The position numbers and the translations under genes are program-made. Shown here piece after piece: positions 4,518-49,116 of a stretch of DNA of 64,000 nt. Location: sequence record LC739539.1; one strand, written 5' to 3'. The stretch's first letter is position 1. Each line of letters starts with the position of its first letter. Source of the stretch: Escherichia phage phiWec190. Under the pieces are notes generated by a model, which was given only the letters and a program-made list of their open reading frames with translations, ran no database searches and was not told the origin of the DNA.

Positions 4518-5467
4518 TATAGCTCCTCAAATAATAATCTACGGCGTTCATTCAGCACATCAATGTGATAATGCTTACGAACATATTTAGCTAAAGCCAA
4601 TCCCTTCTCGATCCCCACATCAGGTTCTTGGATCAGGTAATTAACAATATCTTCCCATTCACTTCTTGATTCTGCAAAGAACAGTAAATCCTTAAACTCT
4701 TCTGTGAAGTAATTCTCACGAGGAGAACAGACCAAAGGCAGACCCTTGGCACCAGCCTCCAGAATCTTAAGGTTACTTTTGGCGTTATTAAACAGGTTAT
4801 CGGTCAAAGGCGCAAGCATTATTTGATGACCATCATAAGATTCCATGTAGCTCTCATATGGTCTAACAGCCTCATAATTGCAGCTTGGAGCCACTTTTTC
4901 ACGTATGTCAGTCCATTGCTGACTACTTAGTACTTCACTATCTCTACGGAATCCGCAGATTGTTAAATCCCTTCCAAAATTCGGCAGTAGAGCTAAATCT
5001 TGTTTATGTGTTTCACTTCCAGCCCATACTATCGGTGATTTGGAATAGCGATCACGAGTTAACGTGAACTGATCCTCATCAAACGGTAAGCCATTTGGAA
5101 TAATATGTACGTTAGGATTGTACTGGGACAGTTCCACCTGGAGAGCAGGTGTTGTTGTCGTCACAAGATCACTACGTTCAAGAAACCATTGCAAGTCTTC
5201 TCGAATACCTGCATCAAAAATGTCTTCCAGCATGTGTCCTTGAGGAATGTTTAAGGAGTCATCCAAATCCATTACCATCTTAAAACCCATGCTCTTAAGG
5301 GCTATGAAACCTTGTTTCCCTTTTGTAGGGACACCGTTAAAGACATATACGTTCTGTGACGGTTGCGCCGAGAACTGCCTTGTGTAAGGCAGCATTACTC
5401 GGTGATAATCGCAGACACTATATTCTTTTCCAGCACGATTGTCAAGAATAATTTGTCCCATAGACAC
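4517..5467 (-). CDS. glycosyltransferase-like protein (GT-B-type), paralog A
   Basis: 316 aa; CDYHRV, LPFDEDQFTL and KSNLKILEAGAKGLPLV (E..A.G.P motif); clear paralog of 5468..6454. Confidence 0.5.
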   Translation of the reverse strand: MSMGQIILDNRAGKEYSVCDYHRVMLPYTRQFSAQPSQNVYVFNGVPTKGKQGFIALKSMGFKMVMDLDDSLNIPQGHMLEDIFDAGIREDLQWFLERSDLVTTTTPALQVELSQYNPNVHIIPNGLPFDEDQFTLTRDRYSKSPIVWAGSETHKQDLALLPNFGRDLTICGFRRDSEVLSSQQWTDIREKVAPSCNYEAVRPYESYMESYDGHQIMLAPLTDNLFNNAKSNLKILEAGAKGLPLVCSPRENYFTEEFKDLLFFAESRSEWEDIVNYLIQEPDVGIEKGLALAKYVRKHYHIDVLNERRRLLFEEL

Positions 5468-6454
5468 CTACAGACTTTCGATCACTTGACGACGCAATTC
5501 GTTTGCATCCTTCAAGTTGTAATGAGTACGAACATGTTCAGCCAAGAACAGTCCACGATCTTCACGGTAGTTTGGATTACGAAGTAGTTTTACAACTTCA
5601 TAGTGCCACTCTGCCTTGCTATCTGCGAAGGTTACTGCACGGGCATCGATCGGGTTGTAGTAAGGTAATACCTTAGAACAAACGATTGGAATACCTTTAG
5701 CACCAGCTTCTAATACTTTTAGGTTGCTCTTGCAATGGTTGAAGTCATTATCAACTAACGGAGCTACAGCCATAGCATGACCATCGTATGCAGACATATA
5801 ATCATTCAAAGAATCTACAGCAGGTTTATACTGCGCATTAGGCAAACTACGGCGGATCTTAACCCACTCTTGCCCTGTCACTGTGCTGCTCGCTTCATAC
5901 CCTGCGATAGACAACAGACTATCATCAAAAGTATTTGAAAGCAAACGTAGATCCGGTTCATGACTTGCACCTCCAGCCCAGATAATAGGCGTACCCGAAG
6001 TACGATCGTTCGACAGAGTGAACTGGTCATCATCGAACGGTAGAGCATTTCGGATCACAACAACATTAGAGTTTAAGTGACGAATTTTATATGCCAAGTA
6101 TTCTGTTGTCACGATAACCACATCTGCCAGTTTAACCATTTCCACAATGGTGCGGGTGTTTGGCGCGTACAGATGCGCCAGGTAGTGCTCTGGATTCAAC
6201 TGATAGAAATCATCCAAATCTACAACAATCTTAACACCTTGACGCTTAAGCTTTGCTACTTCGTCAGCACCTTTCGAGAAGATGCGATTAAAGACCAGTA
6301 CATCGGTACGTGGTTTTATCTCTACATTAGAAAACGGCATAACGACGCGATGATAATCACAACCACTGTTGAATTTGTTGTCACACAGTAGGGTGGGTTT
6401 TTTATTTAGCGCCATATCCTTCAGCCTCTTCAAAAGAGATGTGTGTTTTGCCAT
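5468..6454 (-). CDS. glycosyltransferase-like protein (GT-B-type), paralog B
   Basis: 328 aa; same three motifs as 4517..5467; true start may be the internal Met near 6415. Confidence 0.5.
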   Translation of the reverse strand: MAKHTSLLKRLKDMALNKKPTLLCDNKFNSGCDYHRVVMPFSNVEIKPRTDVLVFNRIFSKGADEVAKLKRQGVKIVVDLDDFYQLNPEHYLAHLYAPNTRTIVEMVKLADVVIVTTEYLAYKIRHLNSNVVVIRNALPFDDDQFTLSNDRTSGTPIIWAGGASHEPDLRLLSNTFDDSLLSIAGYEASSTVTGQEWVKIRRSLPNAQYKPAVDSLNDYMSAYDGHAMAVAPLVDNDFNHCKSNLKVLEAGAKGIPIVCSKVLPYYNPIDARAVTFADSKAEWHYEVVKLLRNPNYREDRGLFLAEHVRTHYNLKDANELRRQVIESL

Positions 6455-7085
6455 TATTGATATCCTCCAAAGACAGTTTGTATTCTTCCCAGTTAACCCC
6501 GATCGCTGCTTCTTTCTCTTCTTTTGTCAGGTTAGCAAAAGGCAGAGGGTTGTCACCGAAAACATCGTCAGGGTGAATATATGCCATAATGCGCATCGGA
6601 CAAGGTACGCCCTGAAGTCCTTTATTCAAACCTGAAGCTTTCAGACGGTTAGTCCATTCTGCATCTTCGAAACCATATCCATGTGTGTACGGACGGAAGT
6701 AGCCCATTGTCTCAACAGTTGCACGAGAATACATTGCAAACTGACACATAGCCAGTTCCCAGAAAACTACTTCTCCCGAACAACCGATCACGGTATCTTT
6801 GAAGTATTCTGGCATACCAAAGAAGTCCCAACCATTTTCAACAGCTTGCTTAACGAAGTATTCTTCCCAACCACGTTTGACTGGATAGCAATCATCATCG
6901 AAAATAAACCAGTAATCAAAACCTTCGTCATAAAACTGTTTCATCAGTTGGTTGCGAGCATAGGCTACACCTTTACGATCTGGATCGTGGAACACTTTGA
7001 AGTCTACACCAGGTGCAACCATGTAATCTTTAAGTGGACGAACGCCTACAGTGATAACGCCAACCCCAATTTTAACATTTTCCAT
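6402..7085 (-). CDS. glycosyltransferase-like protein (GT-A-type, DxD)
   Basis: 227 aa; FDYWFIFDDDCYP acidic DxD-like motif. Confidence 0.45.
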   Translation of the reverse strand: MENVKIGVGVITVGVRPLKDYMVAPGVDFKVFHDPDRKGVAYARNQLMKQFYDEGFDYWFIFDDDCYPVKRGWEEYFVKQAVENGWDFFGMPEYFKDTVIGCSGEVVFWELAMCQFAMYSRATVETMGYFRPYTHGYGFEDAEWTNRLKASGLNKGLQGVPCPMRIMAYIHPDDVFGDNPLPFANLTKEEKEAAIGVNWEEYKLSLEDINNGKTHISFEEAEGYGAK

Positions 7086-7093
7086 CTTTCCCC

Positions 7094-7657
7094 CTAAATA
7101 GTTTTCCTGTGATCATGACAGTGCATGAGGTGTGATATTGCCCGTTGAGGATCTTTTTGACCTAAACGGTAAATGTGGAAGAGATACATCCCACGCATCA
7201 ATCCTAACCTTTTTCCTCGTTCATGTAAAGTGTTTGAGAAGATTATATCGAACTGGATGCTACGTTCTTCAAAAGGGATCTCCTTCCATAATGATTTCCT
7301 GAACAACAGGAAGAAACCTGCCAAGGGAGTGCCTTGCGGGACTTCTTCAATTTCATCGCCATAGTAATCACGAGCAACTTTGGCATGAGAAATATGGTTC
7401 AGAATGTCAGGATCATCATTAATCTTTCCGCCGAGGAGTTGATAACTACTGCCTAAACGGTTACAGGATGCACCTATTACATCGAACGGTGGGTTGGTTG
7501 CTACCAAATCTTCCAACATAGAAGGTTGGTCTGGCAGTAAGAACATGGTGTCGGTATCACGTAAACACACCCAACTATCTTCATGAAGAACGGCAATAGC
7601 ATCGTTAATTGCTTTGCCGATATCTCCAGTCAGATAAGGGGTAATATAATAAATCAT
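7094..7657 (-). CDS. hypothetical protein, possible GT-A-like glycosyltransferase
   Basis: 187 aa; VCLRDTDTMFLLPD DxD-like motif; weak. Confidence 0.35.
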   Translation of the reverse strand: MIYYITPYLTGDIGKAINDAIAVLHEDSWVCLRDTDTMFLLPDQPSMLEDLVATNPPFDVIGASCNRLGSSYQLLGGKINDDPDILNHISHAKVARDYYGDEIEEVPQGTPLAGFFLLFRKSLWKEIPFEERSIQFDIIFSNTLHERGKRLGLMRGMYLFHIYRLGQKDPQRAISHLMHCHDHRKTI

Positions 7658-33855: not shown

Positions 33856-34044
33856 ATGGCACGTTTAGCAGATCATGAAATCTTTAAACCTATTCTGAAC
33901 CACTATAATGAACTTAAGGCAGTGTTGGATTGTTATAAAGAGGATGAAGAACGCTTGGAAGTCAATCTTAAGATAGTTCTGATGAAAGCTTTTCAAGACG
34001 GGCAAGCTGAAGTCTTAAGAGGTATGAAAAATGCGAATAACTGA
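33856..34044 (+). CDS. hypothetical protein (62 aa)
   Basis: Track ORF trimmed to MARLADHEIF... with AAGGAG RBS. Confidence 0.4.
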   Translation: MARLADHEIFKPILNHYNELKAVLDCYKEDEERLEVNLKIVLMKAFQDGQAEVLRGMKNANN

Positions 34045-34558
34045 TGAATATGTATTCTTCTTTTCACATAAAGATGTGTTTAGCAATTGGTACATTGCGC
34101 CATTTACAGAGACGGAACCAGGGTACAGTGACACTTTCTGTTGTGTAGAGCAATACATGATGTGGCGTAAGGCTTTGCTGTTCAAGGATCAGGTAATCGC
34201 AGCAGCTATCCTTTATCACTCAATGAAGCGTGACGACGAGAAGGGACAGGCGTACTACAAACGTATGGGTCGAGCGGTGTCTGGTTTTAATAATGACGTG
34301 TGGGAAGAGCACCGAGAGCGTATCGTAATGCGAGGCTTATGCTTGAAGTATACACAGAACCCTGATCTTTACTCTGACTTGCGCCTGTATCAATTCAAAA
34401 CATTCGTTGAGGCCAGCCCTTACGATAAGGTTTACGGAATTGGAATGGGTATGTATGAACCAGGGGTGCTTAATCCTGCCAACTGGAAAGGGCAGAATCT
34501 TTTAGGACAATACCACAACAATCTGATTAAAATCCTGTTCCCAGCCAAAATACCATAA
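34031..34558 (+). CDS. NADAR-like (DUF1768/YbiA-type) protein
   Basis: 175 aa; FFFSHKDVFSNWYIAPFTETEPGYSDTFCCVEQYMMWRKALLFKD fits the NADAR N-terminal signature. Confidence 0.55.
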   Translation: MRITDEYVFFFSHKDVFSNWYIAPFTETEPGYSDTFCCVEQYMMWRKALLFKDQVIAAAILYHSMKRDDEKGQAYYKRMGRAVSGFNNDVWEEHRERIVMRGLCLKYTQNPDLYSDLRLYQFKTFVEASPYDKVYGIGMGMYEPGVLNPANWKGQNLLGQYHNNLIKILFPAKIP

Positions 34559-34627
34559 AGGCGATATTCGTGATATTTTGAAAAAATTCGTTTTTAAAAA
34601 GAATACGTCAACTTTGTGCCACAGAAA

Positions 34628-34665
34628 AAGGCTCCTACAACCTCCGTAGAGAGCCTTTTTCTCTT
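34628..34665 (+). terminator. rho-independent terminator
   Basis: AGGCTCCTAC-AACCTCC-GTAGAGAGCCT followed by TTTTTCTCTTT. Confidence 0.65.
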
Positions 34666-35010
34666 TAGCTACACCAACACTCATCTTTTAGAGTTAACCT
34701 CGTTAGACGAGCATTCAGGTAGGTTGTAGGCTGCGTAGCATCTTCAGGAAAGATTATCTCAAATCTTACAAGCAAACTATCTCAAAAATCCCTACAATTA
34801 TTTAAACTTTTTATGAGTTTACAAAAACGAGAATCCAAAACCAAATTCTAAAGTTTACACACATTATCTCAAATGGGTGGACCAGATTGCAAAACAAAAA
34901 ACCGAGAAAAATTTTTAAAAAAGTCGCGCGCACCAGGTATTTAAAGTTTTTTTGCTTTTACAAAAGTGAAAGTTGAAAAGCAAATTCTAAAGTTTGCGTG
35001 AAAATTACCG

Positions 35011-35210
35011 AAATGAGAATTATTCTCACTTAAAATCGAAATACGAATGAGAATGATAATGATTCTCATTTAACATGGTAAATACGAATGATTCGCATTC
35101 AATAGCGTAAATGAGATTTATTCTCACCTTGCGAATGAGATTGATTCTCATTCAACTATCCAAATAAGATTGATTTTTATTCAATAAGGTAAATGATAAT
35201 CATTCTCATT
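35011..35210. repeat. array of about 7 imperfect palindromes resembling Fur-box hexamer repeats
   Basis: AATGAGAAT-n-ATTCTCATT type units about every 30 bp, e.g. GAATGAGAATGATAATGATTCTCATT and AATGATAATCATTCTCATT. Confidence 0.55.
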
Positions 35211-35471
35211 TAGAGAATGACGGGCAGGTCCGGTGATTATCTCGCGCTCCCGTGTCCCCTCGCCATGTAATAAGAATAACAGATCCAGCCAGGAAAGCAA
35301 GCGATTATTTTATCTTTACATTTCTTTACAAATATATAGCGCCCAGCCTCCCGGCGATCGACCTTCCAACCGGTGCCCCTGGTATGTTAGCCCCGCCTTT
35401 ACGCCGTGGGGGGTGGCGCTTCCTCTTCTGTATGTAAAACAGTATAAGCCCGATCCCTGGGCTTGTCAAGA

Positions 35472-35738
35472 CTATTTTTTGTCTTCTTGCCAGGCAAGAA
35501 CGCCTAACCAAAAATACATATCACCCCGCGCCCCTGGCGGTATCTTGTTTTCACCGCCGCCACTGCAAGCCCATAAATAACCATCAGCGAACGGATCAAA
35601 ATGGTCTATATCTTCCACTTTATGATCGCCCAAGGTGAGAACGGTTTCAACCTTTAAGCCCGTTGCGCTTGCTACCTGGTGGACCGTGCCGCCTTGCCAG
35701 CCTAAAGAGTGCATAAGGTGTAATGTAGTAGTTGTCAT
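35472..35738 (-). CDS. hypothetical protein in GC-rich island (uncertain)
   Basis: 88 aa track ORF, opposite orientation to neighbours, in a locally GC-rich 0.5 kb segment. Confidence 0.3.
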   Translation of the reverse strand: MTTTTLHLMHSLGWQGGTVHQVASATGLKVETVLTLGDHKVEDIDHFDPFADGYLWACSGGGENKIPPGARGDMYFWLGVLAWQEDKK

Positions 35739-35847
35739 GGTGTCGCCCTTTCTTTGTTGTGCGCCCTGGTTGGCGCGGTAGAAAGATAATAGCCCTTTCC
35801 TTTATATATAGCAAGCAAAAAAGAAATGAAAAAGATTGAAAAAGTGG

Positions 35848-35904
35848 TTGACGTTCGCCAGGTGGCGGCGTACTATTCATCACGTAGGGCGGCAATGGTG
35901 CTGC
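35848..35904 (+). promoter_or_regulatory. cassette promoter plus leader stem-loop (copy 1)
   Basis: TTGACG 35848-53, 17 nt, TACTAT 35871-76, leader CACGTAGGGCGGCAATGGTGCTGC (stem 35889-35904). Confidence 0.6.
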
Positions 35905-35925
35905 TCACTATCTGGAGTTAAGATC

Positions 35926-36123
35926 ATGGCAACATTGCACATAGTAGCGAAAGCAGGACAAATCAACGTAGTGGTAAACGGCTTTACTGAATTTAGTCAT
36001 CCTCAAGATGATCATGAAACGGTGCTATCTTTCATTGATTCCCTGTTAGAAATGGGAGTCATTACAGAAGACCAACACGCTACTAAATCCGAACGTGTCC
36101 GCCGTATCGCGGGTGAAGAATAA
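35926..36123 (+). CDS. small hypothetical protein (65 aa)
   Basis: Track ORF trimmed to first Met after leader; RBS GGAG. Confidence 0.5.
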   Translation: MATLHIVAKAGQINVVVNGFTEFSHPQDDHETVLSFIDSLLEMGVITEDQHATKSERVRRIAGEE

Positions 36124-36129
36124 AAAGTA

Positions 36130-36190
36130 TTGACAATACGCAACAACCTGATAAGATGTATCACGTAGAGCGGCGGAATGGTCCACCGCT
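36130..36190 (+). promoter_or_regulatory. cassette promoter plus leader stem-loop (copy 2)
   Basis: TTGACA 36130-35, 16 nt, TAAGAT, leader GTAGAGCGGCGGAATGGTCCACCGCTC. Confidence 0.6.
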
Positions 36191-36213
36191 CACAACTAAG
36201 AGAGATTATCATC

Positions 36214-36486
36214 ATGGCATCATATAGCGCAACAATGATCGTAACTGGCACCACTGGCAAACCTATGAGCGGTGGCGGATCTTTCGCTAACATCAATATT
36301 GACGGGCGCTTATCCCTGGACGCAGCGATCGCCGTAGCGCGGGAAACATTTAAGAAAGAATGTAATTTCAACAAGCAAGATTATTTAGGTTTCGCTATTG
36401 AAAAAACCGCGCGCTTTGTGGATTATAAAAGCCCGAAAATGGTTGATACTACATTAACAGCAAGACAAGTAAACTTTTTGCTGTAA
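36214..36486 (+). CDS. small hypothetical protein (90 aa)
   Basis: Track ORF trimmed to MASYSATM... after RBS AAGAGAGA. Confidence 0.5.
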   Translation: MASYSATMIVTGTTGKPMSGGGSFANINIDGRLSLDAAIAVARETFKKECNFNKQDYLGFAIEKTARFVDYKSPKMVDTTLTARQVNFLL

Positions 36487-36496
36487 GGGGGCTAAC

Positions 36497-36757
36497 GTGC
36501 ACTTTCTTAAGGTATGCGGGAAGATCATAGCCTTTCGTAATGAGGAATTTTATAACCTTGCTCGTTATGTTATGATCTACCCTGGCAAGGTATATAAAAA
36601 CAGTCCGACAAGTTACACTATTTACAATGTGCTATCAGGTAAAACCACGGAGATCATAAAAGGAGGGGTGAGAGATTATCGTACATCTTTCTATCCTTGC
36701 CGTGATTCCGCCAGCTTATTTTTTGTGTGTGAAATGATTGTTAAAAGGGGTGTATAA
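36497..36757 (+). CDS. hypothetical protein (86 aa, GTG start)
   Basis: ORF track; RBS AAGGGGG. Confidence 0.45.
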   Translation: MHFLKVCGKIIAFRNEEFYNLARYVMIYPGKVYKNSPTSYTIYNVLSGKTTEIIKGGVRDYRTSFYPCRDSASLFFVCEMIVKRGV

Positions 36758-48039: not shown

Positions 48040-48420
48040 AGGCTGTTAGAGAGCTATTTAGAGCGGTTAAAATCGATCAACAACCAACAACAAACAACCG
48101 AAAAAGGCTGTTTTCCTCCTTTCCAGTGCAATGATAACCATTATCATCTAACCTTGCGTATCTATGCAATATAAGTGCATAACTATAATGTTGATAATAG
48201 TTCGCAACAACTAACCAACCAACAACCTAAAACAATAAGCAAACTAATCATAATCAAAGGAATAATAGAAAGATGATTGATAACGACAAACAATCAAACC
48301 ATGATGAATACTAAGCAAGATAACGATAACACGACAAAACAACCAACTAACTAACGATAACAAATGAAATCATTAAAATAACAACTATTAGTAAAATAGT
48401 GCCTATTGCCGAAATAGTGA
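48040..48420. repeat. A+C-rich, G-poor low-complexity tract with CAACAA/ACGATAAC-type short repeats
   Basis: Read directly: strong strand compositional skew, no plausible ORF. Confidence 0.5.
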
Positions 48421-48463
48421 AGACTGTAATAATTGTAAAATGAATCATTCCAAGCCTCATCAT

Positions 48464-48496
48464 TAGCACGCTACGCCGGACACGTAGCGAGCTAAT
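48464..48496. repeat. 13-bp-arm hairpin/palindrome
   Basis: TTAGCACGCTACG-CCGGACA-CGTAGCGAGCTAA (one mismatch). Confidence 0.5.
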
Positions 48497-48560
48497 AATA
48501 AGCCAACTACACCCCCACAATCATAACTATCGGTGATAGTTATTTCTTGTGATTATGTAG

Positions 48561-48577
48561 CTTGCAATTATTGCAAG
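48561..48577. repeat. perfect 17-bp palindrome CTTGCAATTATTGCAAG
   Basis: Read directly. Confidence 0.55.
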
Positions 48578-48655
48578 CGTATTACGCTTACACTAATTAC
48601 GCTGGCTTATTATTAGCATTGTATGTAAGAATAGTTAAGCGTAATATAATAATCA

Positions 48656-48670
48656 ATGTAATTATTACAT
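48656..48670. repeat. perfect 15-bp palindrome ATGTAATTATTACAT
   Basis: Read directly. Confidence 0.55.
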
Positions 48671-48913
48671 GAGTTATCACTATCGTTCAGTGTGATCATC
48701 ATTAGCATGGTGAAGGATTAGCACGTAGCAACATGAGCGAATAGCGACAGGTTGCATAGTGTACAGATATACAGAAAGATGAAAGATAAAGGCTTAATGT
48801 TTGCGGGGGAAAGATAGCCGCCTATGGCGGATATGTTGAGCACGTTCTCTTAAACGTAAATAAAATCAGAAAAATCTTGATTTATTGGTCGATTTGTTGT
48901 AAGAATTGTCTGA

Positions 48914-48932
48914 ATAATAATCATTCTCATTT
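48914..48932. repeat. Fur-box-like palindrome copy
   Basis: AATAATAATCATTCTCATT, same unit as 35011-35210 array. Confidence 0.5.
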
Positions 48933-49083
48933 ATTTTATAGGTAGTCTGTTATGGGCGGCACCTTTACACCGTAGTAATCATATGTTTAGGTTGTTAAGT
49001 AGTTGATTGATAAAGGATTGTTTAAAAAGTAGTGCTTAAGTTAGGCCCAACCTTATAGCAGGGGAAAAGATCGCCTAAGTTAT

Positions 49084-49116
49084 TGAATGCGAATGATAAT
49101 GATAATTATTCTCATT
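49084..49116. repeat. Fur-box-like palindrome copy
   Basis: GAATGCGAATGATAATGATAATTATTCTCATTG. Confidence 0.5.

Follow-up and report, generated by a model that had tools for sequence, protein, structure and literature searches.

In our study, the island rich in guanine plus cytosine (GC) at positions 35221-35800 of the Escherichia phage phiWec190 DNA (LC739539.1; the 64,000-nucleotide stretch analysed is called the window, and all positions refer to it unless another record is named) is found to consist of two conserved minus-strand units of the phage, a gene for an 88-amino-acid protein and a predicted small RNA gene, here called RNA1, and it is not foreign DNA. With its pseudoknot, RNA1 apparently represents an RNA family that has not been described before and that is confined to a major group of lytic phages. 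The chances are about even, in our judgement, that it is an independently transcribed early RNA which acts in trans and whose tail binds a conserved partner. The features of the two units are as follows.

35472..35738, minus strand: gene of the 88-amino-acid protein, stop codon included, annotated as BDU13371.1 and belonging to the phrog_19316 / phrog_33408 family.
35786..35814, minus strand: promoter-like site of the 88-amino-acid gene, TTGCTA-17-TATTAT, from a consensus scan.
35776-35761 and 35751-35746, minus strand: 5' leader of the 88-amino-acid gene, with a hairpin GCGCC/GGCGC at the former and an AAAGGG resembling a ribosome-binding site at the latter, from sequence inspection.
35441..35469, minus strand: predicted promoter P1 of RNA1, TTGACA-17-TATACT, with 11 of 12 consensus positions, from the consensus scan.
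About 35332..35435, minus strand: RNA1, a predicted small structured RNA of ~100 nucleotides, from covariance model R1, with the start placed from the promoter.
35433-35419, minus strand: purine-rich 5' leader of RNA1.
35418-35415 with 35405-35402, minus strand: hairpin P1 of RNA1, CGCC pairing with GGCG, from covariation.
35413-35408 with 35394-35391, minus strand: pseudoknot of RNA1, the C-run in the loop of hairpin P1 pairing with GGGG, from covariation.
35401-35398, minus strand: A-rich linker of RNA1.
35386-35379 with 35373-35367, minus strand: hairpin P3 of RNA1, from covariation.
35365-35348, minus strand: 3' tail of RNA1, AAGGUCGAUCGCCGGGAG, with the same pattern in all family members but one.

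The GC enrichment described in the initial annotation was confirmed by a sliding-window calculation. The island has a GC content of 0.51 (51%) against a mean of 0.423 for the 64 kb (standard deviation of 580-bp windows 0.024; z = 3.7), it is the highest 580-bp window of the whole 64 kb, and the maximum starts exactly at 35221. The contrast becomes sharper on the left flank (34560-35220), where the GC content is 0.32. The GC-rich run quoted in that annotation, CCGCCTTTACGCCGTGGGGGGTGG, is present at 35393-35416 on the plus strand, and both of the open reading frames (ORFs) that it named exist, one of 115 amino acids on the plus strand (35233..35580) and the other the 88-amino-acid frame on the minus strand. 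The several GC hairpins were also recovered as short hairpins at 35776-35761, 35464-35446, 35418-35402 and 35386-35367, and the most GC-rich part of the island lies downstream of promoter P1. The island is located in the early region and is flanked by small plus-strand genes, each with a sigma-70-type promoter, and to its left is an AT-rich non-coding stretch of ~650 bp bearing a palindrome array. The region 34560-35900 matches Escherichia phage phiWec188 (LC739537.1; Phapecoctavirus, Stephanstirmvirinae) at 100% identity and ~60 related phages at 90-95%.

The evidence for the structure of RNA1 comes from compensatory changes among its homologues. The covariance model R1 was built from 24 sequences. 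In alignment A6, 87.5% of the cells form standard pairs and 13 of the 16 pairs change on both sides, counts which lean towards structure because A6 was fitted to a model already containing hairpins P1 and P3, and in which the cell counts overstate the independent events as many sequences are closely related, the distinct pair types being unaffected. The observed covariation was reached in none of 500 shuffles, and sliding the partners by 1-3 columns reduced the pairing to at most 55%. A MAFFT alignment (A2) has shown the same helices with fewer events. The pairs are kept by compensatory changes, which points to a structured RNA. The CGCC/GGCG stem of hairpin P1 becomes GGAC/GUCU in Aeromonas phages, and its loop has 6-9 nucleotides, four of which are complementary to four nucleotides located 6-7 nucleotides past the hairpin. 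This pseudoknot covaries though it is absent from the search model: CCCC:GGGG is found in most members, CUCC:GGGG, CCAA:UUGG, CCAG:CUGG and CCAU:AUGG in others, and four fully complementary combinations occur. Loops of 1, 2 and 6-7 nucleotides surround the two 4-bp stems and the last loop always has AAA; from the general knowledge of pseudoknot geometry, these lengths would fit an ordinary H-type pseudoknot within one molecule. Hairpin P3 varies in length and sequence, with closing pairs that switch from C-G to G-C and from A-U to G-C. G-U pairs outnumber A-C combinations by 11 to 2 in the RNA1 alignment and therefore the folded strand would be the minus strand of the window, in agreement with the direction of the promoter. 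A further helix proposed by RNAalifold (GGCGG/UCGCC, labelled P2) was rejected, since it overlaps the G-run of the pseudoknot and is lost in divergent members.

In the initial annotation neither ORF was thought to have the ribosome-binding site or promoter grammar of the neighbouring genes, which proved wrong for the minus strand: AAAGGG stands 7 nucleotides before the ATG of the 88-amino-acid frame with the promoter-like site at 35814..35786 before it, and the best sigma-70 match of 34500-36600 is promoter P1 (35469..35441), inside the island and directly after the stop of that frame. Among the 49 distinct homologous loci, 44 have a sigma-70-like promoter with 9-12 of 12 consensus positions at a fixed distance from RNA1, the gap from the -10 hexamer to the start of the model being mostly 7-11 nucleotides (range 5-12). 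In the other five loci, an insertion shifts the start of the model (two loci), the scan gave no promoter (one) or the match is doubtful (two). With this promoter of its own, RNA1 is predicted to be a stand-alone small RNA gene. The spacer of promoter P1 holds the GC hairpin AAGCCC/GGGCTT (35464-35446), followed by ATACTGTTTT; this hairpin was a terminator-like match in the scan and looks like the terminator of the 88-amino-acid gene as well.

The family was found to be widely distributed among phages. Model R1 matches the window once (35429..35332, 95.8 bits) and has given 53 matches in all (52 distinct sequences) among metagenomes, IMG/VR contigs and phages in GenBank, spanning Stephanstirmvirinae, Vequintavirinae, Aeromonas Plateaulakevirus phages and metagenomic sequences; much more divergent copies are present in Erwinia Henunavirus phages and in the Aeromonas Plateaulakevirus phages 2L372D/X and 4L372D/XY. 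A distant blastn search with 35200-35830 matched 234 phage records. In Mydovirus and Proteus phages only 35313-35438 matches, at ~80% identity, and the flanks do not, and in Cronobacter, Salmonella, Enterobacter and Serratia phages the match includes a second conserved segment (described below) and not the 88-amino-acid ORF. The segment is found at the same position in 123 records at a coverage of at least 80%, plus other subfamilies. The RNA1 region is thus matched where the 88-amino-acid ORF and the flanks are not, and therefore the non-coding part is better conserved than the coding part; RNA1 is the best-conserved DNA of the region. The tail pattern AAGGU-NN-AUCGCCGG-N-AG is invariant except for a C-to-U change in two members and a divergent second copy in one phage contig (L021). 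RNA1 is not coding, as indels of 1, 2, 4, 5, 6 and 8 nucleotides occur inside it among relatives, and no conserved open frame crosses it on either strand in the homologous loci. In Aeromonas phage 2L372X, RNA1 stands alone, antisense to the surrounding small genes and followed by a bidirectional terminator-like hairpin, in a locus without a co-oriented ORF, the 88-amino-acid gene, the second promoter or the palindrome array. RNA1 can thus occur apart from the protein, from a downstream ORF and from the AT-rich array, and an obligatory pairing of protein and RNA was rejected, since the RNA is present in Aeromonas phages which lack the protein.

No RNA1 match was found in 5,426 E. coli genomes, and among 185,579 species genomes (one per bacterial species) the tail pattern appeared only four times. 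These four matches look like chance, and only one of them was scored by the model, weakly and partially (17.5 bits, E ~1e-3, the expectation values (E) of the model being rough). An origin in the host or a mimicry of a host RNA was rejected on these grounds. The Rfam scan proposed in the initial annotation gave no known family: with E values up to 10 allowed, the 4227 models of Rfam 15 gave no match over RNA1 in any of three copies, from the window, Klebsiella phage KB57 and Aeromonas phage 2L372X. ARAGORN detected no transfer RNA (tRNA) or transfer-messenger RNA gene in the whole window. The likeness of GGUAGCUCGUC over 11 nucleotides to the D arm of tRNA-fMet is not conserved in the family, and neither are the Shine-Dalgarno-like and CsrA-type (GGA) resemblances which were seen by eye. 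Full-text literature searches, sequence strings included, returned no description of RNA1.

Some individual loci deserve mention. The contig L021 (IMGVR_UViG_2974574029_000001, 6286-7124) has two RNA1 copies in one phage, the second of which is divergent with an altered tail. Directly behind the first copy's near-invariant tail stands a gene of the HNH endonuclease family (197 amino acids; phrog_953, E 7.6e-79). A homing endonuclease appears to have inserted itself at a conserved target here, and the position of the gene next to the tail fits a strongly constrained target sequence. In Pseudomonas phage PsgM04F (OR584014.1, 2264-3321), which is 94% identical to the coliphages though it is listed with a Pseudomonas host, five short 'hypothetical proteins' are annotated over the non-coding region and the RNA, and these are probably over-calls.

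The second unit of the island answers to the small gene on the opposite strand that had been suggested in the initial annotation. The 88-amino-acid ORF is already annotated in phiWec188 (GenBank BDU13371.1) and in ESCO13, phrog_19316 matches the protein end to end (E 2.8e-56), and homologues were found in 148 phage records; a separate search gave 20 homologue clusters with 40-90% identity. A profile search widens the family to 202 representative clusters, mostly of 80-120 amino acids and likewise unannotated. The differences from relatives fall mainly on the third codon position (for example 6/3/15 for the three positions), with synonymous changes exceeding non-synonymous ones. From its sequence, 35738..35472 is a real gene of an uncharacterised small-protein family. 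The AlphaFold2 model of the protein has five helices with a predicted local distance difference test (pLDDT) score of 94.8, and no structural neighbours were found outside its own family; Pfam and NCBIfam families also gave no match. The N-terminal motif GGTVHQVASATGLKVETIL resembles a helix-turn-helix, and neither a helix-turn-helix family profile nor a solved helix-turn-helix fold was matched. Mydovirus and Seunavirus loci have ORFs of 61-63 amino acids upstream of the RNA (L004 1678-1863 and L006 1780-1971), which share only L(E/K)MYN(S/A)GF with the middle of the 88-amino-acid family, lack its N-terminal and C-terminal parts and may be truncated relatives. The plus-strand ORF (35233..35580) was rejected as a gene. 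It matches no protein family, it has indels of 1 and 2 nucleotides against close relatives and of 4-8 nucleotides against distant ones, which are non-multiples of three, and the open stretch varies from 41 to 127 amino acids among the homologous loci. This frame is open because the C-rich antisense strand has no stop codons.

Alignments of the fetched loci have shown a constant order in the enterobacterial phages: a small minus-strand ORF, the promoter with a GC hairpin in its spacer and the ~100-nucleotide conserved segment are followed by two TGTAAAGA copies, a second promoter-like site, a second conserved segment of ~55 nucleotides and a Fur-box-like palindrome. The features downstream of RNA1 in the window are given below.

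35313..35330, minus strand: two direct TGTAAAGA copies (35330-35323 and 35320-35313), just upstream of the second promoter, from the alignments.
35272..35300, minus strand: putative promoter-like site P2, TTGCTT at 35300-35295, 16 nucleotides, TATTCT at 35278-35273, from the alignments.
35215..35268, minus strand: second conserved non-coding segment, ACAUGGCG...CACCGG...UGCCCGUCAUUC, from the distant blastn search in other subfamilies and the alignments.
35199..35221, minus strand: hairpin GUCAUUCUC / GAGAAUGAU followed by a U-rich stretch, a terminator-like scan match with 9 pairs.

The TGTAAAGA repeats are conserved in enterobacterial relatives, and in Aeromonas phages a related TGTAAGGA precedes the RNA1 promoter. 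Exact TTGTAAAGA occurs only three times in the window, and TGTAAAGA as a general promoter motif was rejected, as it is not repeated elsewhere beyond chance. Site P2 is weak in this phage and falls below the threshold of the consensus scan, though its position and hexamers are conserved in the alignments; relatives have TTGCAA or TTGACC, 17 nucleotides, and then TATATT or GATAAT at this position. The structure of the second segment was found to be only weak, with a 6-bp closing stem and an RNAalifold consensus of -1.9 kcal/mol; one of its pairs is GC in 10, AU in 7, GU in 3 and AC in 3 sequences, and nothing beyond this weak closing stem was found. The hairpin at 35199..35221 is formed by the end of the second segment and the first Fur-box-like palindrome, is present in the minimum-energy fold and is the same as inverted repeat I4. 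It is a possible terminator for the transcripts of promoters P1 and P2.

Further into the AT-rich stretch, the palindrome form AATGAKAATNATTMTCATT was matched 11 times where 0.33 would be expected; seven of the matches lie at 35012-35210 and four in a second AT-rich zone (48130-49116). Their core, AATGAT-W-ATCATT, is identical to the central part of the E. coli Fur box, and three matches with at most three mismatches were obtained for the 19-bp Fur consensus against 0.03 expected. Nearly all relatives have kept the first Fur-box-like palindrome. The palindromes may be bound by Fur or by a phage protein, or they may act as RNA hairpins. Four relatives (L025, L029, L036 and L021) have A5-6T5-6 palindromes (such as CCCCAAAAAATTTTTTCGC) and ~65-bp direct repeats downstream of the second segment, and the window has AAATTCTAAAGTTT twice plus GAAAAATTTTTAAAAAAG at 34780-34990; these repeats look like iterons. 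Extra sequence interrupts the second segment in L035 (about 4990-5200), where the insert is an ORF beginning after AGAGGTATTCC, and in L013 (about 1750-1900), and the region seems to be a hot spot for insertions. An inverted repeat AAAAAGGCTC...GAGCCTTTTT flanked by A and T runs (34618-34660) lies between the minus-strand non-coding transcripts predicted here and the gene to their left and is likely a bidirectional terminator; Rfam gave a weak sub-threshold match to ctRNA_p42d at this place. GenBank PQ002170.1 and PP681140.1 are among several genomes that start in the non-coding region, and one annotates an 'attL' repeat at 12-91. Such starts might mark true ends of the genome, or the assemblies might have broken at repeats.

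Immediately to the left of the non-coding region, the plus-strand gene at 34031-34558 codes for a protein with a NADAR domain (Pfam PF08719, E 4.7e-34; NCBIfam TIGR02464, E 1.5e-31), which is annotated only as hypothetical in the phage record. On the other side, the plus-strand cassette promoters are TTGACG-17-TACTAT (35848-35876) and TTGACA-16-TAAGAT (36130-36157), and each of them is followed by a similar leader, CACGTAG(G/A)GCGGC..., which is able to form a hairpin before the start codon.

The mechanism that we favour may be described as follows. Both units are antisense and embedded in a block of plus-strand early genes, and host RNA polymerase would start RNA1 at the near-consensus sigma-70 promoter 35469..35441, right after the protein gene. 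The 4-bp hairpin would present its C-rich loop for pairing with the G-run seven nucleotides downstream, and the third loop of the resulting H-type pseudoknot would be A-rich. Next would come a second hairpin, whose length varies, and ~18 nucleotides of unpaired 3' tail. This scaffold would stabilise and present the tail, which is probably the working part. Early in infection the tail would bind in trans a partner that is itself highly conserved across Escherichia, Klebsiella, Salmonella, Cronobacter, Pectobacterium, Erwinia, Serratia, Proteus and Aeromonas; this partner may belong to the host core, as an RNA or a protein, or be one of the core proteins of the phage. The trans-acting reading is preferred because RNA1 has its own early-type promoter and a near-invariant free tail, stands alone in one phage group, is duplicated in one phage and occurs in phages of hosts from Escherichia to Aeromonas. 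As an extension of this reading, RNA1 could represent a new class of active phage RNA, either a decoy or inhibitor of a conserved host machine or defence, or a cofactor of the phage replication or packaging machinery, with the 18-nucleotide tail as the recognition surface. This is possible but doubtful in our view, and a self-cleaving ribozyme takes up a smaller part of the same possibility.

Several observations weigh against the trans-acting reading. The start, the end and the very existence of RNA1 as a transcript, as well as its action in trans and the tail as a binding surface, are things that we infer from the sequence. A terminator-like hairpin follows RNA1 in the Aeromonas phages; in the enterobacterial phages there is no clear terminator directly after it, and the nearest candidate in the window (35221..35199) is ~130 nucleotides downstream. 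Complements of the tail are not enriched in the window, and the best one in the E. coli ribosomal RNA (rRNA) operon has 9 nucleotides (23S rRNA 104-112) and is not significant. The enterobacterial RNA1 points into the AT-rich repeat array, which would fit a role at a replication origin too. The pseudoknot is imperfect in four sequence classes (five loci), one of the four pairs being absent in L029, L082, L080 and L089, and L083 keeping two Watson-Crick pairs and a wobble. To the leaning of the A6 counts mentioned above it should be added that the folding energy of single sequences was no better than that of shuffled ones (z -0.8 to +0.8). These energies being ordinary, the case for structure rests on covariation and not on stability; the structured non-coding RNA considered in the initial annotation holds in the former respect and fails in the latter.

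The main rival explanation, which we consider unlikely, is an origin transcript, in which RNA1 and the transcript from P2 would serve as primer or activator RNAs running into an AT-rich, repeat-filled replication origin. The two tandem minus-strand promoters aim into a region of 0.29-0.32 GC (34560-35220) with seven palindromes and tandem repeats, the A/T palindromes and ~65-bp direct repeats of the relatives lie further downstream, the whole ~900-bp stretch is without a conserved ORF, several GenBank records begin inside the region, and RNA1 is present throughout the sampled phage group, as expected of an origin. The genome map of rV5 also has an unexplained 'non-coding' box, which may be this region, and the rV5 origin could not be located (PMC3606486). 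However, RNA1 of the Aeromonas Plateaulakevirus phages is followed by a terminator-like hairpin and opposite-strand genes with neither a palindrome array nor a second promoter, one phage has two copies split by an endonuclease gene, and the cumulative GC skew of the window reaches its minimum around 30,000, though the skew in these phages follows the direction of transcription (PMC3606486). The same Aeromonas arrangement, a terminator and then opposite-strand genes, speaks against RNA1 as a cis-acting leader, that is, a riboswitch-like or protein-binding sensor, an attenuator of read-through into the second conserved segment and the palindrome array or a modulator of the second promoter. Riboswitches are commonly built on pseudoknot aptamers whose third loop is A-rich, no strong terminator stands directly after RNA1 in the enterobacterial phages, and the conserved sequence runs on through the TGTAAAGA repeats, P2 and the second segment, all of which would suit such a leader. 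But a promoter-like site belongs to the downstream segment itself, a riboswitch would have no conserved co-oriented ORF after it to control, and none of the Rfam riboswitches matched; we judge this explanation to be quite improbable.

An element working at the DNA level, such as a protein-binding, packaging or single-stranded-DNA signal with hairpins forming in the DNA, would account for the conservation of the tail in primary sequence, like that of a protein-binding site, and for the database records that begin in the non-coding region. It is very improbable, as pairing partners up to 40 nucleotides apart covary, the excess of G-U over A-C marks one folded strand downstream of a promoter whose position is conserved in 44 of the 49 loci, and ~100 nucleotides is long for a binding site. 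The initial annotation had also considered a horizontally acquired remnant, and this, like a functionless compositional accident, is scarcely credible. The local GC is 9 points above the genome mean, as a remnant might have it, but the island has the same syntenic place in Stephanstirmvirinae and Vequintavirinae and holds DNA that is conserved better than its flanks and than anything else in the neighbourhood. Moreover, neither patchy presence nor foreign similarity was found, with no match in E. coli or other bacterial genomes, and the ORF shows a coding substitution pattern and the RNA covariation.

This study has revealed an element which occurs in more than 200 sequenced phages over three phage groups and was not found in the bacterial genomes searched. 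Few coliphages are isolated as often as the rV5-like, phAPEC8-like and phi92-like myoviruses, which are phage-therapy candidates and whose early regions are almost wholly uncharacterised. An unannotated gap of ~250 bp can now be described as a predicted RNA gene that has a promoter and a pseudoknot supported by covariation, whose near-invariant tail is a candidate functional part and for which a search model exists. As RNA1 is conserved better than the surrounding proteins, it likely matters for infection, and its partner, once found, could reveal an RNA-based mechanism of host takeover, anti-defence or replication. These outcomes can also be used to correct the annotation of some records, which call spurious ORFs over the RNA1 element.

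In comparison with known systems, RNA1 resembles the preQ1-I and SAM-II riboswitches and the pistol ribozyme in having a short hairpin whose loop pairs downstream across an A-rich linker, with another helix after it; it differs from them in its conserved nucleotides, in having no Rfam match at E up to 10 and in the absence of a downstream gene to regulate. Other short phage non-coding RNAs that host RNA polymerase transcribes are T4 RNA C, T4 RNA D and lambda OOP. The two T4 RNAs are conserved and, to our knowledge, no function is known for them, but they lie within the tRNA cluster and arise by processing of a tRNA precursor. OOP is antisense to cII, whereas RNA1 has its own promoter and a pseudoknot and is antisense to no gene. 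The promoters of T7 (phi1.1A/B), T4 (oriE, oriF and oriG) and ColE1 RNA II fire, like those described here, towards an AT-rich, repeat-containing non-coding region. The T7 origin has two promoters and then an AT-rich region, T4 oriF and oriG have a promoter and an unwinding element, and oriE has an early RNA, iterons and small Rep proteins. In ColE1, RNA II is a folded G-rich RNA that helps a persistent RNA-DNA hybrid, and its fold matters for function. Unlike these origin transcripts, the Aeromonas RNA1 homologues have no AT-rich array, and there is no sequence similarity.

A loop of four nucleotides pairing with a four-nucleotide complement is also known from phi29 pRNA, in which the pair is AACC/UUGG, whereas RNA1 has CCAA/UUGG and three other combinations. 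The pseudo-ToxI of Pectobacterium phage phiTE (PMC3475682) is an example of a phage RNA used against host functions and thus a precedent for a decoy role. ToxI-type RNAs have tandem 36-nucleotide repeats, which RNA1 lacks, and no tandem repeats of the type III antitoxin kind (~34-36 nucleotides) were found inside 35221-35800; an identity of RNA1 with pseudo-ToxI was rejected, since the latter is at a different locus of the phiTE genome. In its general design RNA1 is comparable to phi29 pRNA (RF00044), which is also a phage-encoded structured RNA of ~120 nucleotides with an early promoter and a loop pairing that covaries among phages. RNA1 does not match the Rfam model of pRNA, and its phages are large myoviruses with a classical terminase. 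The pairing in pRNA is intermolecular and builds a ring on the prohead, whereas the geometry of RNA1 fits a pseudoknot within one molecule.

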